Assembly (NCBI RefSeq): GCF_018420025.1 | Contig: NZ_JAEDAM010000057.1 | Coordinates: 1 to 6,493, forward strand | Length of the DNA stretch: 6,493 nt | Reading direction: 5' to 3' | Origin: Candidatus Vampirococcus lugosii | GTDB taxonomy: Bacteria; Patescibacteriota; Gracilibacteria; Absconditabacterales; Absconditicoccaceae | In this document: positions 1 through 6,493 of the stretch, piece after piece | Layout: every line of letters starts with the position of its first letter | Numbering within the stretch: the first letter of the stretch is position 1 | Notes under the pieces: model-generated | What the model was told of the DNA's origin: nothing | The model's input: only the letters and a program-made list of their open reading frames with translations | Database searches by the model: none | Made by a program: the position numbers and the translations under genes

Positions 1-976
1 AATACTTTTTTACTTCTTCTTCAATATTTTCAATATCTTTTAAATTGTAAAAATCTAAAATTTTAAGTTTTTTTAAACTTATATTAAAAAGATAAACTTG
101 TTCTCTCAATATTCTTAAAAAAGACTTTTGCTCCTCACCAATATCTGAAATATTTTCTTTTATTGCATTTATTGTTTCTTTAGTTTTTGAATTAAAGTAT
201 TCAAATAATCCATCAATTACATCTAATATTTTATTAAAATTATCAATATCAGCTTTTTTATATTCTGTAGAAAATTTTTCTATACTTTGTATCCTAGAAT
301 CTTCAATTTTTGATATACAACAAGGACACTCTTTTTCATTGATTCATAAGTATTCTTTTCATTGTATTTGCCAAGCAACATATCTACTATTTATAGAATT
401 GTTTTTTAAATAATTACTATATCACAAAAAATCACTTCAAGGATTATTTATTTTTCTAGCAGATTCTAATCATTTAAATATAGTTGAACTTTGATTTATA
501 TCTCAACCTTGATTAATTTTTACAAAATCTAAAAAATTATCTGTATCGCTTATTAATTTATCTAAATCTGGATTTTCTTGAAAAGTTCATCTTAAATTTT
601 TTACTAAATTGTCAACTTCTTGAATTCATTTTTTATAAGTTTCATTTTCTATAAAAATTGAAAAACTATTTTCTAAAATTTCATCTTTCTTAAAAGTATA
701 TTGTTTTATATAATCTTCATTAAAAATTTTTATTTTTTTAATATCTTCTAATCATAAAATTTCAGATTTTTTAGTATTATCACCAATATATTTATAAGGT
801 TTTAATAATTTTTCATCTTCTTCATTTTTTTCTAAATAATATTTAAATGCCCTTGCAATAGTACTTTTTCAAGTTCAATTTATAGCATACTTGATATTTA
901 ACTTTTCTTTTTCTAATTTTATTACTCATTTTTCAATATTTCAACAATATTTTAATTCTATATTTAATTCAGCCAT
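1..976 (-). CDS. AAA_13/ABC-type ATPase, RloC/PrrC-like; N-terminal ~325 aa only, the 3' end runs off the left edge of the window
   Basis: ATG at 976..974. The frame stays open to position 1 under table 25, with 13 in-frame TGA and no TAA/TAG. Translation begins MAELNIELKYCGNIEKGVIKLEKEKLNIKYAINGTGKSTIARAF. This contains a Walker A P-loop, NGTGKST (~860..886), in which both Gly are TGA (869..871, 875..877 on the + strand as tca). The P-loop is followed by a long helical/coiled-coil-looking region containing ECPCCISKI (CPxC at 317..328). That layout is typical of PF13166-type ATPases, recalled from memory. Confidence 0.75.
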
Positions 977-979
977 CCC

Positions 980-1771
980 TTACTTCTTAAAAATTAAAAT
1001 ATATTCATGTTTAAAAATATAATAATCGCTATTTAAAGCTCTATATCTCCAAATTCAACCACTTCAAATTTTTCATCTATTTCACTCCATATTTTTTACA
1101 ATAATTGATTTTAGTTTAAATCAGACTTTTTGAGCTTCGTTCATACATTGAAACCCGAGTGGAATCCATTCGCTATTTGCATATTTATCTCAAATAACCA
1201 CTCACATATATCAACCTGATTTTAACAATTCAAAACTATTTTGCAAAACATTATGAAACATATTTAAAAAATCTTGCAAATTTCAAGCATTTGATAAATC
1301 TTTTTTATCTTCACTAAACTTGATTATATCAAAATAAGGAGGATGTAAAAGCACTAAATCAACTCAAGTTTTTTTATGATGTTTTAGTATTTTTTGAATA
1401 TCTTTTTTTGTTTCTTCGCTTCCACTATCTCATAATCAAAAATGCTTTTGTATTTTATCTGATGCAATAAGTTCTTTAGCTCTTGCAACAAGTTCTTCTT
1501 TTAAATCAATTCAAATAATATTTCTTTCCAACTTTTCACATTCAATTGCAGTTGTCCCACTTCACAAAAATAAATCCAAAACCCATCATCATTTTTTGGT
1601 ATATCTTTTTATTAGTTGATAAGGAATTTGTGGCACAAAATTTCAATGATAAAAATTACTATGTTTTCAGCTTTTGTCTCTTTCATTTATTATCCAAAGA
1701 CTATCAGTCAAAATATCTTCATATTTTTTCCAATTACCATTATTCAGATCTAAATCATTAAACTTTGGCAT
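980..1771 (-). CDS. SAM-dependent N6-adenine/N4-cytosine-type DNA methyltransferase-like protein, 263 aa
   Basis: ATG at 1771..1769 and TAA at 982..980. There are 18 in-frame TGA and no other stops. Motif X/I is YHGNFVPQIPYQLIKRYTKKGGWVLDLFLGSGTTAIECEKLERNIIGIDL (FLGSGTT ~1550..1570, first Gly = TGA at 1562..1564). The catalytic motif IV is LVLLHPPY (1334..1345). The C-terminus is GIWRYRALNSDYYIFKHEYILIFKK, which resembles the conserved HEYILVF block of PF01555-type methylases. Confidence 0.85.
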
Positions 1772-1787
1772 TTATATAAAGAATTTA

Positions 1788-1816
1788 ATTATAAATATCA
1801 ATATTTTTTTTATTAA
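1788..1816 (-). promoter_or_regulatory. candidate sigma70-type promoter for the methyltransferase-ATPase pair
   Basis: On the minus strand: TTAATA (1816..1811), a 17-nt spacer, then a perfect TATAAT (1793..1788), 16 nt upstream of the ATG at 1771. Such hexamers arise easily by chance in DNA this AT-rich. Confidence 0.3.
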
Positions 1817-1838
1817 ATTTTAAAAATGTGATATTAAT

Positions 1839-1854
1839 GAAAAAATATTTTTTC
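1839..1854. repeat. 16-bp perfect palindrome GAAAAAATATTTTTTC
   Basis: The sequence is exactly self-complementary. It abuts a second inverted repeat, CTAAAAA (1854..1860) / TTTTTAG (1871..1877), with a 10-nt loop. Confidence 0.7.
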
Positions 1855-1979
1855 TAAAAAATAGAATATCTTTTTAGTTTATCAAAATAATCAGTTAGTA
1901 AATTAAATATACAAAAACATTAATTAATTTAATATTTCAATTTATTTTACTATATTAAATCATTATTTTAATATCAAAA

Positions 1980-2525
1980 TTAAAGTTGATAATATTTGTT
2001 ATAAAATGGTGCTATTGCTGCTTTAAATGCAATTGAGAATTCATCTTTTCTAGTAAACATATTATCAGACCAAGCTCACATACTTCAATTTTTACTTCTT
2101 ATATTTAAAGATCAGGATAAATCTCACATTATATCTCAAAGTTCTTTTCATTTTATATAAAGTTCATTTTCTATTAATTTAGGGACTTCCATCATAGGAG
2201 AAAATCAGAAATGTCATTCTCAATCATTATTTAATACAAATACTATTCAAAATATATATTTTTTTCATAAAAAATCGCTTGTTCATCATTCTATTCATAT
2301 ATAATAATCTGCTTTTATTCATTTTTTTTGTAAGTTGTTAGCTCTGTTTTTTGCTCATTTCATTGTCTCTTCAATAGATAAAGGCATATCTGAAATATCT
2401 GAAGAGATTTTTTCTGTTATAAAAAATATTTCATTAAATATATTTGATAAATATGGAGTTTCTTTAATTCATTCTTTTATTCAATTAATTTTAGGTTCTC
2501 TTGTTGTTCATATTGCTATTATCAT
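1980..2525 (-). CDS. yjjX: inosine/xanthosine triphosphatase (non-canonical purine NTP phosphatase), YjjX/DUF84 family, 181 aa
   Basis: ATG at 2525..2523 and TAA at 1982..1980. The length is 546 nt, with 19 in-frame TGA. Translation is MIIAIGTTREPKINGIKEG...SDMPLSIEETMKGAKNRANN...KADYYIGIEGG...GKELGDIMGDLSGSLNIRSKNGSMGAWSDNMFTRKDEFSIAFKAAIAPFYN. It is colinear with E. coli YjjX as recalled from memory (EQPFGSEETRAGARNR / ADFWVAIEAG / GEALGPVM...KEGAIG...LSPF). Confidence 0.9.
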
Positions 2526-2786
2526 AATAATATATTTGTATAAAATTATAAATAATTATTAATATCTTTTTTATAAATATTTTCAAGCTTAATTTAAAAT
2601 ATTTAATTTAAAATTTAAAAACTATATTTTTTGCACAAAAAAATTTAATCAATTTGGTAAATAATTGTTTATAAATAATTATTTAGAAATTTTGTTCTAT
2701 TAAAGATAAGTTTAAAATTAATTATATTGAAAAATAAAAAAAAATAAATATAAAAGATATATTTAATTATATTATAGAAATAATAA
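2526..2786. promoter_or_regulatory. divergent intergenic region between yjjX (-) and serS (+); promoters for both are expected here
   Basis: 261 bp with no ORF on either strand under table 25. It contains several TTGAAA/TATAAT-like hexamers, a 26-bp near-palindrome and A/T-tract direct repeats. No specific promoter can be assigned with confidence. Confidence 0.4.
2659..2684. repeat. 26-bp near-perfect palindrome (12 of 13 base pairs symmetric)
   Basis: AAATAATTGTTTATAAATAATTATTT compared with its reverse complement differs only at the pair 2667/2676. Confidence 0.6.
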
Positions 2787-4049
2787 ATGATAGATCTTAA
2801 AAAATTCCGTGAAAATTATGAATGGTATATCAAAAAAACTGAAGAGAAATGAATTAAATTAGATTTTCCAAAATTTATGGCAATGGATTTACAACTAAAA
2901 CAAATAAAATTTGAATTAGACAATCTTAATCAAGAAAGAAATGAAATTTCAAAAGAAATTCCTAACTTGAAAAAAGAATGAAAAGATACTGAAAATCTTG
3001 TAAATAAAGTAAAAGATCTTAAATCTGAAATTGAAGACAAACAAAAAAAATATAATGAAATATATAATGACTTTTATGAAATTTATATTAGAATACCAAA
3101 TCCTGCATTTGATGATGTTCATATTTGAAAATCTGATGAAGAAAATAAAGTTGCTTATTATGTATGAGAAAAACCAAAATTTAATTTTGAGCCATTAGCA
3201 CATTATGAATTATTAGAAAAAAGAGATATGTTGGATCAATGAAGAAGTGCAAAAGTTTCTTGATCAAGATTTTATTATATTAAAGATTGATTAGTAAGAC
3301 TAGAATTAGCTTTGATAAGTTATACTATTGATAAACTTAGTAAAAAATGATTTAGACCTATTATATGACCAAATTTAGTAAGATATAATTCTATGCTTTC
3401 TACAGGTTTTTTTCCAGCTGAAAAAAATGAAATATATACTGTAAATCCTGATGAAGATGATCTTTATTTAATATGAACATCTGAAGTTACTATGATAGCT
3501 CAACATATGGATGAAATTTTAGATGTTGATAAATTACCTTTGAGATATGTATCTTTTTCTCCTTGTTATAGAAGAGAAGCTTGAACTTATGGTAAAGATA
3601 GTAAATGAATGATAAGAGTACATCAATTTGAAAAAGTGGAAATGGTAAGTTTTACTAAACCTGAAGATAGTATTAAAGAACATGAATTGATTTATGAAAT
3701 AGAAGAAGAAATAGTAAAAGAATTATGACTTCATTGTCAAAAAATAGATATTTGTACATGAGATCTATGATTTCATGCTGCAAAAAAATATGATTTGGAA
3801 GCTTGGTTTCCGTGATTGACTACATACAAAGAAATAACTTCTTGTAGTAATTGTACTGATTTCCAATCTAGAAGAGCAAAAATTAAAATGAAAGATGAAA
3901 AATCAAAAGATTTTGTTCATACATTAAACGGAACTGCAATAGCTCTTGCTAGAATAATGGCTTGTATTGTTGAAAATTATCAAACAAAAGATATGAAAAT
4001 TGAAGTTCCTGAGGTTCTTAAAAAATATATTTGAGAAGAATATTTGTAA
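2787..4049 (+). CDS. serS: seryl-tRNA synthetase (class II, bacterial type), 420 aa
   Basis: ATG at 2787 and TAA at 4047..4049, followed immediately by a second TAA. There are 17 in-frame TGA. An N-terminal K/E-rich coiled-coil arm is present. Conserved blocks are [14 protein letters not shown] (Gly = TGA at 3261), LIGTSEV, the motif 2 block [30 protein letters not shown] (TGA at 3582 and 3606), [21 protein letters not shown] (TGA at 3759 and 3768), and the motif 3 block [24 protein letters not shown]. The track ORF 3816..4034 is the in-frame tail of this gene. Confidence 0.97.
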
Positions 4050-4108
4050 TAAATATTTTAAATTTTATATAGATAATCTATTGAAAAAAATATTAAATTT
4101 ATTAAATA

Positions 4109-4136
4109 TTGTTAAGTTACATTTTTTATATATAAA
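4109..4136 (+). promoter_or_regulatory. candidate promoter for the 4146 and 4903 gene pair
   Basis: TTGTTA (4109..4114), a 16-nt spacer, then TATAAA (4131..4136), ending 9 nt before the ATG at 4146. This would imply a very short leader or none. It could be a chance match in AT-rich sequence. Confidence 0.25.
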
Positions 4137-4145
4137 ATTAGTAAA

Positions 4146-4892
4146 ATGTTAAAAAAACCTAATTTTTATATTTATTTTAGTTTTTTTTTGTTAATTTTTT
4201 ATTTTGTTTTTTCATGAAATACAAATTCTTTTTCTTGGTTATCTTTTTGGACAGTTAATCAAAATATTAAAGTTTCCGAAAATTATATTAAAGATTTCTT
4301 GATTGATGATATGGCAATAAATTCTTTGTTGGCAAATTTAAGTGTTTGAAAATGAACTTATTCTCAAAAACACTTTTTGGCAAAATGAATTGATGCATCT
4401 CAAACAACTAAAAATTTATTGGAAACTAAAGAAAGTCAACTTTTGAAATGAACTTCTGATACTAAAGTAGTTTTGGAAGCTTATATAAATAATATAAGAA
4501 ATACTGTCCTTGATAATCAACAAATTTTGAATAATTTAAGATATGAAAAATCTCAATTTGATCAAAAAAGAAATTTTTGTGATGAACAAAAAAAAATGTG
4601 AGATACTATGTTTTTTAATTGATTAGATCAAGATAATTCAGAACTTGCTATCAGATGACTTGAAACTTCTTTGGATAATTCGCCTTGTTATATTAACAAT
4701 AGAGTATATTCAAATGTTTATGAAAATTTAATAAAAAAAATTGATTTTTATAATTCATTATTATCTAGGAAACAAGTGATTTTGGAAAATAATGTTGATT
4801 TGATATTAAATAATTTTGAATTGTTTGAAAATAATCAATTGGAAGAATTGGCAGGACTTAGAAATGAATTAAGATCTTTTAATATTAATTAA
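4146..4892 (+). CDS. hypothetical membrane-anchored/exported helical protein, 248 aa
   Basis: ATG at 4146 is the first ATG after the in-frame TAA at 4113. TAA at 4890..4892. There are 8 in-frame TGA and no TAA/TAG. The N-terminus MLKKPNFYIYFSFFLLIFYFVFS looks like a signal peptide or TM anchor. The remainder is N/Q/K/E/L-rich and heptad-like. I recognise no family. The track ORF 4671..4892 is its in-frame tail. Confidence 0.7.
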
Positions 4893-4902
4893 AATAAATA
4901 CA

Positions 4903-6129
4903 ATGAAAAAAATAATTTATTTAATAATATTTTTTGTTTTTGCATTATTTATTTATGTTCAAAAACAATTAGTATTAAATCCAAAAAGTATTGATATTTT
5001 ATGATATAGTATAAATTTATCTAGTTATTACAAAGCTAATTATTTTTCATATTTTTATTATAGAGATAAAAATCCTAGATATGTTTTGGAAAATTGAATA
5101 TCTTCAGATTATGTTGAATATTGTCATAATGAAGAAAAAAATTGTTTAATAATTCCACATCAAGAATCTTATTCATCTTATTTATGGATAACTAGTGTTC
5201 AATATGTTGGCTCTATGCTTCAATCAGATAGACTTAAAAATCTTTATGGTATTATAGATAATCTTACAAATATGTCTCCATATTGGACATATCCATATCA
5301 ATTTGGACAACTTATGATTCCTATTGATAAAACTTTAAAAGCAAGTGATGAAAAAAAGAAAAAATCTTGGGATCAATCATTAATATTATGAAAAAAATGA
5401 ATTAATTACAATTGTGATCAAAACAAAAAAAATGAAATATTAGCAATTTCTAATGAAGATTTTTTTAAAATAATGATTTCAAAAGATGAAAAATATGAAA
5501 AACTTAAAAATCCATGTAGTTCATATAATATTCCTTATCAACAATGATTTAATAGTTTCTTTCATAATTCAGATTGGGAAGATTCAGCACAAAATTTTAA
5601 ATTAGCTAGTTTTCATGATTGAGTTCCTACTGCAAGTTCTTCTATGGTTTCAATTGTTGCTGGTAGAGGTTGACAACATATGCAAAGTTTACAATTATGG
5701 TTTTCTCAATTTATATCTCATATGGAAGAATTAGAAAAAGCGAAAAAAGAAGAACAAATAGAATTTTATGAAAATATGGCTGATGAAGCTATAACAAAAG
5801 CTATATTTGAACTTCAATTGCAATTACTTACTCAAATTGATGAATCATTATGAAATAAACATGATTGTTATCGTAATTATCAATGTATGTTAGATAATTG
5901 AATATTATCAGTAGCAGTAAAAGAAAATATAAATTATTGTATACAAAATACAGAATTTGAAGAATTAAAAGATATAGATTTTAATACAAATAATGCATTA
6001 TGTTTTACTTTATCTAAAGCAATACAAGACTCTTACATAAATGAAAATTGAACTCTTATAAATCCACGAAACAAAAATCTTAAATTTAAATTTGATGATT
6101 ATAATTATAATACTTGGTGGGTATGATAA
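4903..6129 (+). CDS. hypothetical exported/membrane-anchored cysteine-containing protein, 408 aa
   Basis: ATG at 4903, 10 nt after the previous stop. TAA at 6127..6129. The frame was checked codon by codon, giving 11 in-frame TGA and no TAA/TAG. The N-terminus MKKIIYLIIFFVFALFIYV is a hydrophobic anchor. There are about 9 Cys, including YCHNEEKNC and DCYRNYQC. A helical, W/Y-rich middle region is present (SYLWITSVQYVGS...SPYWTYPYQFGQL). I recognise no family. Confidence 0.75.
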
Positions 6130-6327
6130 ATTTATTTAGTATATTATTTTAATAATAAATAAATGTTTATTGATTTATCAAGTAGCTTTACAATTGTCTT
6201 AATATAAGCTGTCAATCAATTTATTAATAATATTTACCTGAATATTTTTTTACAAATTTAAATACAATTAATATATATTATATAATTGAAAATTTTTCCG
6301 AAATAGAAATCAAAGAAATTATTTACA

Positions 6328-6350
6328 GAATTAACAAAATTCGCTTTTTT
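6328..6350 (+). terminator. weak intrinsic-terminator-like hairpin plus T-run
   Basis: GAATT (6328..6332), loop AACAA, AATTC (6338..6342), then GC and TTTTTT (6345..6350). The stem is only 5 bp and AT-rich, and it lies about 200 nt downstream of the stop at 6129. Confidence 0.2.
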
Positions 6351-6445
6351 CTCTAATTTAGGTGTAGAAGATTAAATAAATTTTCTCTTGAAAATAAATA
6401 ATTATTATTTATATTGAAATTACATTTATATTTTAAAAAATTTGT

Positions 6446-6493
6446 ATGAGAAAATTGTTGTTATTACTAGTACTTTGACTTATTCCGGTTTTT
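6446..6493 (+). CDS. possible start of a third exported protein (only 16 codons visible)
   Basis: ATG at 6446 followed by MRKLLLLLVLGLIPVF, where Gly = TGA. This looks like a signal peptide, and the ORF runs off the right edge. It is too short to confirm. Confidence 0.3.

Follow-up and report, generated by a model that had tools for sequence, protein, structure and literature searches.

UGA as a glycine codon in a six-gene contig of Candidatus Vampirococcus lugosii

Introduction

In the bacterial groups SR1 and Gracilibacteria, UGA is read as glycine (Gly) under NCBI translation table 25, a reassignment that has been established since 2013 and was reportedly described by Campbell in 2013 and by Rinke et al. 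in 2013. Here we analyze UGA in a 6,493-bp stretch of DNA from Candidatus Vampirococcus lugosii (contig NZ_JAEDAM010000057.1), referred to throughout as the window, which has a guanine-plus-cytosine (GC) content of 21.0%. We are close to certain that UGA is a glycine codon, and not a stop, in the six ordinary genes that the window carries. The finding is correct but already known, and the reading is already annotated in GenBank and RefSeq.

Evidence that UGA encodes glycine in BD1-5, a related lineage, both in silico and proteomic, was given by Hanke et al. in 2014 (PMC4032931). The Codetta study recovered the same meaning in 6 of 6 Absconditabacteria and in 13 of 15 Gracilibacteria, and corroborated it by the presence of a tRNA-Gly with the anticodon UCA and the absence of release factor 2 (RF2); the glycine identity elements that it sets for the tRNA(UCA) are G1:C72, C2:G71, G3:C70 and U73 (PMC8629427). 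For V. lugosii itself, the genome paper of 2021 states the recoding outright (PMC8080830), and we found nothing on tRNAs or release factors in that paper's supplements. Since the recoding is long established and has been stated for this very genome, its confirmation in one contig is of little value as a discovery, and the practical lesson is one for annotation pipelines.

The window resembles the table 25 system of SR1 and Gracilibacteria in having UGA at conserved glycines of housekeeping proteins, UGG for tryptophan (Trp), UAA as the stop and AT-rich DNA, and it comes from the same phylum. There is no difference in kind. The difference is one of degree: TGA supplies 86 of the 105 glycine codons in the window (82%), and in one gene GGN codons are entirely absent. 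The window also shares features with the table 4 systems (Mycoplasmatales/Entomoplasmatales, Hodgkinia, Nasuia, Zinderia and Stammera), in which UGA is likewise a sense codon in the small, AT-rich genomes of host-dependent bacteria and in which open reading frames (ORFs) likewise collapse when genes are called under table 11. It differs from them in the amino acid, with tryptophan the worst fitting of all 20 residues and never exchanged for TGA in relatives. A second reassignment has been predicted for the phylum by Codetta (Shulgina & Eddy 2021), that of CGA and CGG from arginine (Arg) to tryptophan in Absconditabacteria (PMC8629427), and V. lugosii was not among the genomes of that screen (PMC8629427).

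Results and Discussion

Under table 11 the longest ORF in the window is 75 amino acids (aa). The four largest, of 71-75 aa, all lie on the plus strand, at 1546..1761, 2335..2562, 3816..4034 and 4671..4892. Of these, the first two lie opposite genes on the minus strand, and the other two share the frames of the seryl-tRNA synthetase (SerRS) gene and of a hypothetical gene (gene 5), respectively. A preliminary description of this DNA, made from the letters alone, had called the window nearly free of ORFs in the standard code, as it is, and had taken two of these ORFs for antisense shadows and two for tails of longer genes. That account stands for the antisense pair and for the tail of gene 5. 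The SerRS piece is a near-tail and not an exact one, ending at an in-frame TGA 4 codons upstream of the real TAA.

When TGA was read as sense, exactly six long frames appeared, none overlapping another. Trimmed to ATG starts, the six genes comprise 1,845 codons and occupy 5,550 nt, or 85.5% of the window, in line with the figure of about 85% put forward before. A codon census found 86 in-frame TGA codons in them (4.7% of codons) and not one TAA or TAG, so that the frames are indeed broken by TGA alone, as had been claimed. All five gene ends visible in the window are TAA and none is TGA; TAG was not seen as a stop either in this small sample of five ends. The longest run free of TAA and TAG was 420 codons. 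In 200 shuffled sequences it averaged 91 codons and never exceeded 155, so that the long open frames seen with TGA as sense are not due to chance. As controls we gave the other two stop codons the same treatment. Reading TAG as sense produced nothing comparable to the six-gene set, and reading TAA as sense produced many frames of at most 246 codons that overlapped one another and made no coherent gene set.

To determine which amino acid best fits the TGA sites, the predicted proteins were scored against Pfam models with TGA translated as glycine, masked as X, or translated as tryptophan. Scores for the three versions were 106.2, 82.6 and 67.9 bits for the DNA methylase (PF01555), 119.1, 79.7 and 58.8 bits for the NTPase_I-T protein (PF01931), and 140.1, 127.6 and 123.4 bits for the SerRS core (PF00587), with 83.6, 78.6 and 77.5 for PF02403. 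The ranking was therefore glycine over mask over tryptophan in every identifiable family. SerRS, NTPase_I-T and N6_N4_Mtase passed the Pfam cut-offs even with TGA masked. The AAA_13 match of the ATPase (gene 1) reached 30.1 bits, under the cut-off of 36 bits, and was seen with TGA as glycine only.

We then placed each of the 20 amino acids in turn at all 19 TGA sites of the NTPase (gene 3) and scored the results with Pfam. Glycine came out on top at 119.1 bits, 23 bits ahead of the runner-up, alanine (95.8), which was followed by S at 92.3, T at 86.7, N at 85.9, Q at 84.2 and E at 82.7. The middle of the ranking was made up of K (82.2), H (81.3), D (80.4), C (77.7), R (76.7), M (73.5) and V (70.4), and the lowest scores belonged to Y (67.7), P (67.4), L (62.6), I (61.9), F (61.0) and, last of all, W (58.8). 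Composition gave the same answer. The six genes contain 86 TGA, 19 GGN and 18 TGG codons, so that with TGA as glycine the proteins hold 5.7% Gly and 1.0% Trp, and with TGA as tryptophan they would hold 1.0% Gly and 5.6% Trp.

Solved structures from organisms using the standard code allowed single sites to be inspected. By our own reading of the alignments, TGA fell on glycine at 22 of 42 sites and on tryptophan at one. Aquifex SerRS (2dq3, E 1.8e-97) has glycine at 11 of the 17 TGA sites, including those in motif 2 and in CTGDLGF (P ~7e-9 at an assumed glycine background of 8%). The YjjX structures of Vibrio and E. coli (1zno/1u14) have it at 7 of the 16 aligned TGA sites of gene 3, and the DNA methylase structures have it at motif I (FMGSGTT, FAGTGTT) and at three further TGA sites. 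The motifs in which TGA had been said to stand for invariant glycines were all present: VS-G-SRF, REA-G-TYGKDSK-G-MIRVHQF and CT-G-DL-G-F in SerRS, MK-G-AKNR and I-G-IE-G-G in YjjX, FL-G-SGTT at motif I of the methylase, and IN-G-T-G-KST at the Walker A site of the ATPase. In EAWFP of SerRS the tryptophan codon is TGG, and three solved SerRS structures likewise have W at this position, which upholds the earlier argument from conserved tryptophans against table 4. Taken together, TGA encodes glycine, and neither tryptophan nor any other residue.

Codon exchange with related sequences extended this result to genes that match no profile. The closest relative, a reference-genome contig (CAZACQ010000008.1, 1-19219; L001), encodes a SerRS with 83% identity to the V. 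lugosii protein. Between the two genes, TGA was paired with TGA at 13 positions, with GGN at 4 and with TGG at none, and TGG was paired with TGG at 2. In five pairwise comparisons within the families of genes 5 and 6, GGN stood opposite TGA in 17 cases and TGG in none; TGG itself faced TGG in 27 cases and some other codon in 4. Summed over SerRS and genes 5 and 6, the pairings came to 21 for TGA-GGN, 0 for TGA-TGG and 29 for TGG-TGG, and in the gene 6 family the TGA columns and the GGN columns share one profile. Because TGA exchanged with GGN 17 times and with TGG not once in genes 5 and 6, these alignments indicate that TGA is used synonymously with GGN also where no profile model exists.

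The L001 contig is itself of note. Its SerRS gene is open only with TGA as sense and contains 16 TGA codons, and the record is labelled 'uncultured Candidatus Peribacteria bacterium'. Since this SerRS is so close to that of V. lugosii and depends on the same reading of TGA, the label looks wrong, or the genome at least uses a code in which UGA is glycine.

With TGA translated as glycine, the five complete proteins of the window match MBS8122220-MBS8122224 of Candidatus Vampirococcus lugosii (taxid 2789015, phylum Candidatus Absconditibacteriota) exactly; their RefSeq counterparts are WP_213349594, WP_213349597, WP_213349600, WP_213349603 and WP_213349606. The source had been given beforehand as probably SR1 or Gracilibacteria, and the exact matches agree with this. 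It had also been supposed that a table 11 pipeline would leave the region essentially unannotated. It is true that no frame above 75 aa is open under that table, but the region is not unannotated, since GenBank and RefSeq carry the table 25 proteins. An independent Logan assembly of run SRR13241709 is identical to window positions 338-6303, where it ends, except for one mismatch at its first base, and the same six genes are called in it.

Three other accounts of the TGA codons were weighed against glycine. In the first, UGA would be tryptophan (table 4), as in Mycoplasmatales and several AT-rich insect endosymbionts. A GC content of 21% is typical of table 4 lineages, and the Logan pipeline did translate the DNA of the window with TGA as Trp, the version that now serves as a cluster representative in a public protein collection. 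However, among the 20 residues placed at the TGA sites of gene 3, tryptophan fitted worst (58.8 bits; glycine, 119.1). It scored below the X mask in all families, would bring the proteins to 5.6% Trp and 1.0% Gly, and was not once found opposite TGA in relatives, in which GGN was found 21 times; the conserved tryptophan columns are encoded by TGG. Profile scoring, composition and codon exchange thus rule table 4 out, and we consider it very improbable. It is more improbable still that the genes are decayed pseudogenes of a standard-code organism with premature TGA stops, even though table 11 leaves nothing longer than 75 aa open. Decay would also have brought in TAA and TAG, the commonest stops out of frame (4-7% of codons), and these number 0 in 1,845 codons in frame, compared with 86 TGA. 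Moreover, SerRS matches TIGR00414 from end to end at 482 bits, TGA is kept at 13 of 17 positions in the orthologous SerRS of L001, and the conserved counterparts of genes 5 and 6 in relatives are 45-50% identical. With no TAA or TAG in frame, and no frameshifts, pseudogene decay was ruled out.

The remaining account, that UGA is selenocysteine or is read through in a context-dependent manner and has not been reassigned genome-wide, starts from the fact that UGA is the selenocysteine codon of bacteria with the standard code. Against it stand the sheer number of sites, 86 in six unrelated genes or one codon in about 21, and their position on Gly columns and not on Cys or selenocysteine columns, with Cys scoring 77.7 bits to the 119.1 of glycine. 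There is no tRNA-Sec and no Rfam element such as a selenocysteine insertion sequence (SECIS) in the window, and TGA never serves as a terminator there. Of all the accounts we give this one the least credence, regarding it as vanishingly improbable.

Several observations do weigh against reading UGA as glycine and should be set beside the evidence for it. Roughly one TGA site in two lies on a variable column that is not glycine in the compared structures (E, K, P, S, N, D and others); the six such sites in SerRS correspond to E, K, W, P, P and S in 2dq3. The one W among them belongs to a variable position of Aquifex SerRS. The identity with the GenBank record rests on exact matches at the protein level, and not on a nucleotide alignment. 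Finally, neither the window nor about 140 kb of DNA from relatives (L001-L011) yielded a tRNA with a UCA anticodon; the only tRNAs seen in these eleven related loci were tRNA-Arg(CCU) and tRNA-Cys, and tRNA and Rfam scans of the window returned no tRNA and no Rfam family.

The reading that we favor, UGA as glycine, places the window under the code of the Absconditibacteriota (formerly SR1), in which UGA is read as glycine; UAA terminates translation here, and UAG is still a stop in principle. Going by the literature, UGA would be decoded by a tRNA-Gly with the anticodon UCA, and RF2 would have been lost. The use of TGA as the main glycine codon in a genome of 21% GC is in the direction in which AT mutation pressure is expected to push.

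We also examined whether the predicted second reassignment, of CGA and CGG to tryptophan, extends to V. lugosii. Our literature search found no account of the meaning of these codons in Vampirococcus. The question turns on gene 6, a 408-aa hypothetical protein, and on the alignment of 60 members of its family. Glycine columns in this alignment read either G or 'W', and the DNA confirmed that the W's are TGA codons mistranslated under table 4. At columns where V. lugosii has a tryptophan encoded by TGG, about 12 of 59 homologues read 'R', and these R's are clustered in the same sequences. Two members (P0042 and P0043) read RRRRRW at these columns, and a third (P0084) has 0 TGG, 11 CGA and 1 CGG.

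DNA was available for four homologues with CGA or CGG on conserved tryptophan or aromatic columns (L007:10001-11071, L009:5652-6788, L010:10001-11260 and L011:85-1344). In all four, the R's at tryptophan columns are CGA or CGG and never AGA, AGG, CGT or CGC, and two homologues, no less AT-rich than V. lugosii at 23% GC, mix TGG with CGA/CGG. We scored the columns occupied by each class of codon in 25 reference sequences free of R at tryptophan columns. Residues at CGA/CGG columns (n=30) were 63% aromatic (30% Trp) and 4% basic, much like those at TGG columns (n=32), which were 70% aromatic and 5% basic. The corresponding values were 11% aromatic and 32% basic for AGA/AGG (n=26), and 6% aromatic and 40% basic for CGT/CGC (n=9). 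Judging from these columns, the published prediction is reproduced in the relatives of V. lugosii, where its signature is clearly visible.

Within the window the signature cannot be demonstrated. The six genes contain a single CGA, at 6067..6069 on the plus strand (residue 389 of gene 6, deposited as Arg389 of WP_213349606.1), and no CGG, and V. lugosii has TGG at all of the conserved tryptophan columns. The column of the CGA is variable, with T6 I4 L4 R3 among the clean references and L12 F8 T8 I6 Q5 V5, mostly non-basic, among all members. In the closest relative, L001, whose housekeeping genes we compared with PDB structures, one CGA falls on an F/F/L/L column and two fall on polar columns (E/P/E/E and S/E/Q) that are not tryptophan-like. 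The case of V. lugosii thus shares its phylum with the Codetta prediction, and shares the signature through the homologues of gene 6, but differs in that its one CGA stands on a variable column. Because relatives use CGA and CGG for what looks like tryptophan, the meaning of the CGA in the window is uncertain. Weighing the phylum-wide prediction and the homologues against the single CGA on its variable column, the TGG at conserved tryptophan columns and the mixed columns of L001, we incline slightly toward a code in which V. lugosii adds to table 25 a reading of its rare CGA and CGG codons as tryptophan, with residue 389 of gene 6 being Trp. If so, table 25 would be incomplete for V. lugosii, and the deposited WP_213349606.1 would carry a wrong Arg at 389.

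One of the four homologues lies on a 1.24-Mb scaffold (L007) with a GC content of 47.6%. It has CGA/CGG at tryptophan columns and no TGA, and its glycine codons are all GGN. Several neighboring genes on the scaffold are called in fragments, as if broken by in-frame TGA. L007 is GC-rich and yet has CGA/CGG at tryptophan columns, and reassignment to tryptophan would therefore not be limited to AT-rich genomes.

These codes have consequences for public sequence collections. The SerRS, gene 5 and gene 6 proteins of the window, mistranslated with TGA as Trp, are cluster representatives in a public collection of 15 billion proteins, and W also stands at Gly columns in many members of that last family. 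Errors of this kind come from gene calls under table 4, and R at tryptophan sites would arise under any standard table. With the second reassignment, of CGA and CGG to tryptophan, which is less widely applied than that of UGA, Absconditabacteria proteins in these collections would be mistranslated in two ways, as W where Gly belongs and as R where Trp belongs. Wherever the code is not dealt with explicitly, systematic G-to-W and W-to-R errors pass into homology searches, alignments and structure predictions for these lineages. As a discovery this is minor, and its use lies in annotation practice.

The six genes of the window encode an ATPase of putative defence type, which is truncated, a DNA methyltransferase, an inosine/xanthosine triphosphate pyrophosphatase, SerRS, and a lineage-specific pair of predicted membrane-anchored proteins. 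Gene 1 (2..976, minus strand) encodes a P-loop ATPase of the AAA_13/PADLOC PDC-S06 type (PDLC04889, E 3.7e-84), PDC-S06 being a candidate defence system. It is truncated at its 3' end by the end of the contig, leaving the N-terminal 325 aa of a protein of about 690 aa, and for this reason the match covers only positions 2-318 of the 693 in the model. It contains 13 in-frame TGA codons, two of them within Walker A. Gene 2 (980..1771, minus strand) encodes a 263-aa S-adenosylmethionine-dependent DNA methyltransferase (N6_N4_Mtase, PF01555; PADLOC MTase_II, E 1.2e-100; MBS8122220.1) with 18 TGA codons, including that of motif I, and a TAA stop. At least 90% identity to this methylase was seen in 11 relatives on other metagenome contigs. 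The ATPase and the Type II methyltransferase are adjacent on the same strand (2-1771), and together they may represent a module for defence, or one resembling restriction-modification, that is interrupted where the contig stops.

Gene 3 (1980..2525, minus strand) encodes a 181-aa inosine/xanthosine triphosphatase (YjjX/NTPase_I-T, PF01931; TIGR00258, 87.5 bits; MBS8122221.1). This is the gene in which all 19 glycine codons are TGA and none is GGN, and it ends in TAA. The spacer between genes 2 and 3 (1772..1979) is non-coding and very AT-rich, with no RNA family or tRNA. Gene 3 and the SerRS gene diverge from an intergenic region at 2526..2786, which presumably holds the promoters of both. A promoter scan of this region was at chance level; in the whole window 67 promoter-like sites were found, with 66.4 expected from shuffles, and scans for terminators and repeats in the window yielded nothing above chance for such AT-rich DNA.

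Gene 4 (2787..4049, plus strand; MBS8122222.1 / WP_213349600.1) encodes the 420-aa SerRS. Its match to TIGR00414 (serS) is full length, covering model positions 1-418 of 418 with 482.1 bits against a cut-off of 301.65, and 29 PDB chains of SerRS match at E<=1e-10. It has 17 TGA, 3 GGN and 2 TGG codons and a TAA stop. Residue 230 (3474-3476) is a TGA-encoded glycine in LI-G-TSEV, at the place where bacterial LIPTAEV has proline in all three structures compared.

Genes 5 and 6 appear from their sequences to be a conserved, lineage-specific pair that encodes predicted membrane-anchored proteins. Gene 5 (4146..4892, plus strand; MBS8122223.1) encodes a 248-aa hypothetical protein with a hydrophobic N-terminal segment, has 8 TGA codons and a TAA stop, and matched no family in Pfam, NCBIfam or PADLOC. 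Orthologues that are 48-50% identical lie directly upstream of the gene 6 homologue in two relatives, and the adjacency is conserved (4146-6129 in the window; L002:9191-11242; L004:9243-11245) with different flanking genes. Gene 6 (4903..6129, plus strand; MBS8122224.1 / WP_213349606.1) has 11 TGA and 7 TGG codons. Its family comprises at least 182 clusters at E<=0.001, and no Pfam family was found among the 60 members aligned. Cys171 and Cys205 are invariant.

A first structure model of gene 6, for which 4 sequences were used, was too poor to interpret, with a predicted local distance difference test (pLDDT) score of 52. The later AlphaFold model reached a pLDDT of 93.1 and a predicted template modelling (pTM) score of 0.86, and it predicts an N-terminal membrane helix followed by an alpha-solenoid resembling tetratricopeptide repeats (TPR). 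Compared with the PDB, this model gave nothing significant; the best hits (best E 0.019, TM<=0.3) were all generic TPR proteins. Downstream of gene 6, the last 364 nt of the contig (6130..6493) are non-coding and contain no ORF, no tRNA and nothing that matches Rfam. The gene itself closes with ...TGG TGG GTA TGA TAA (the last two codons at 6124-6129), so that a glycine codon TGA stands immediately before the stop TAA.

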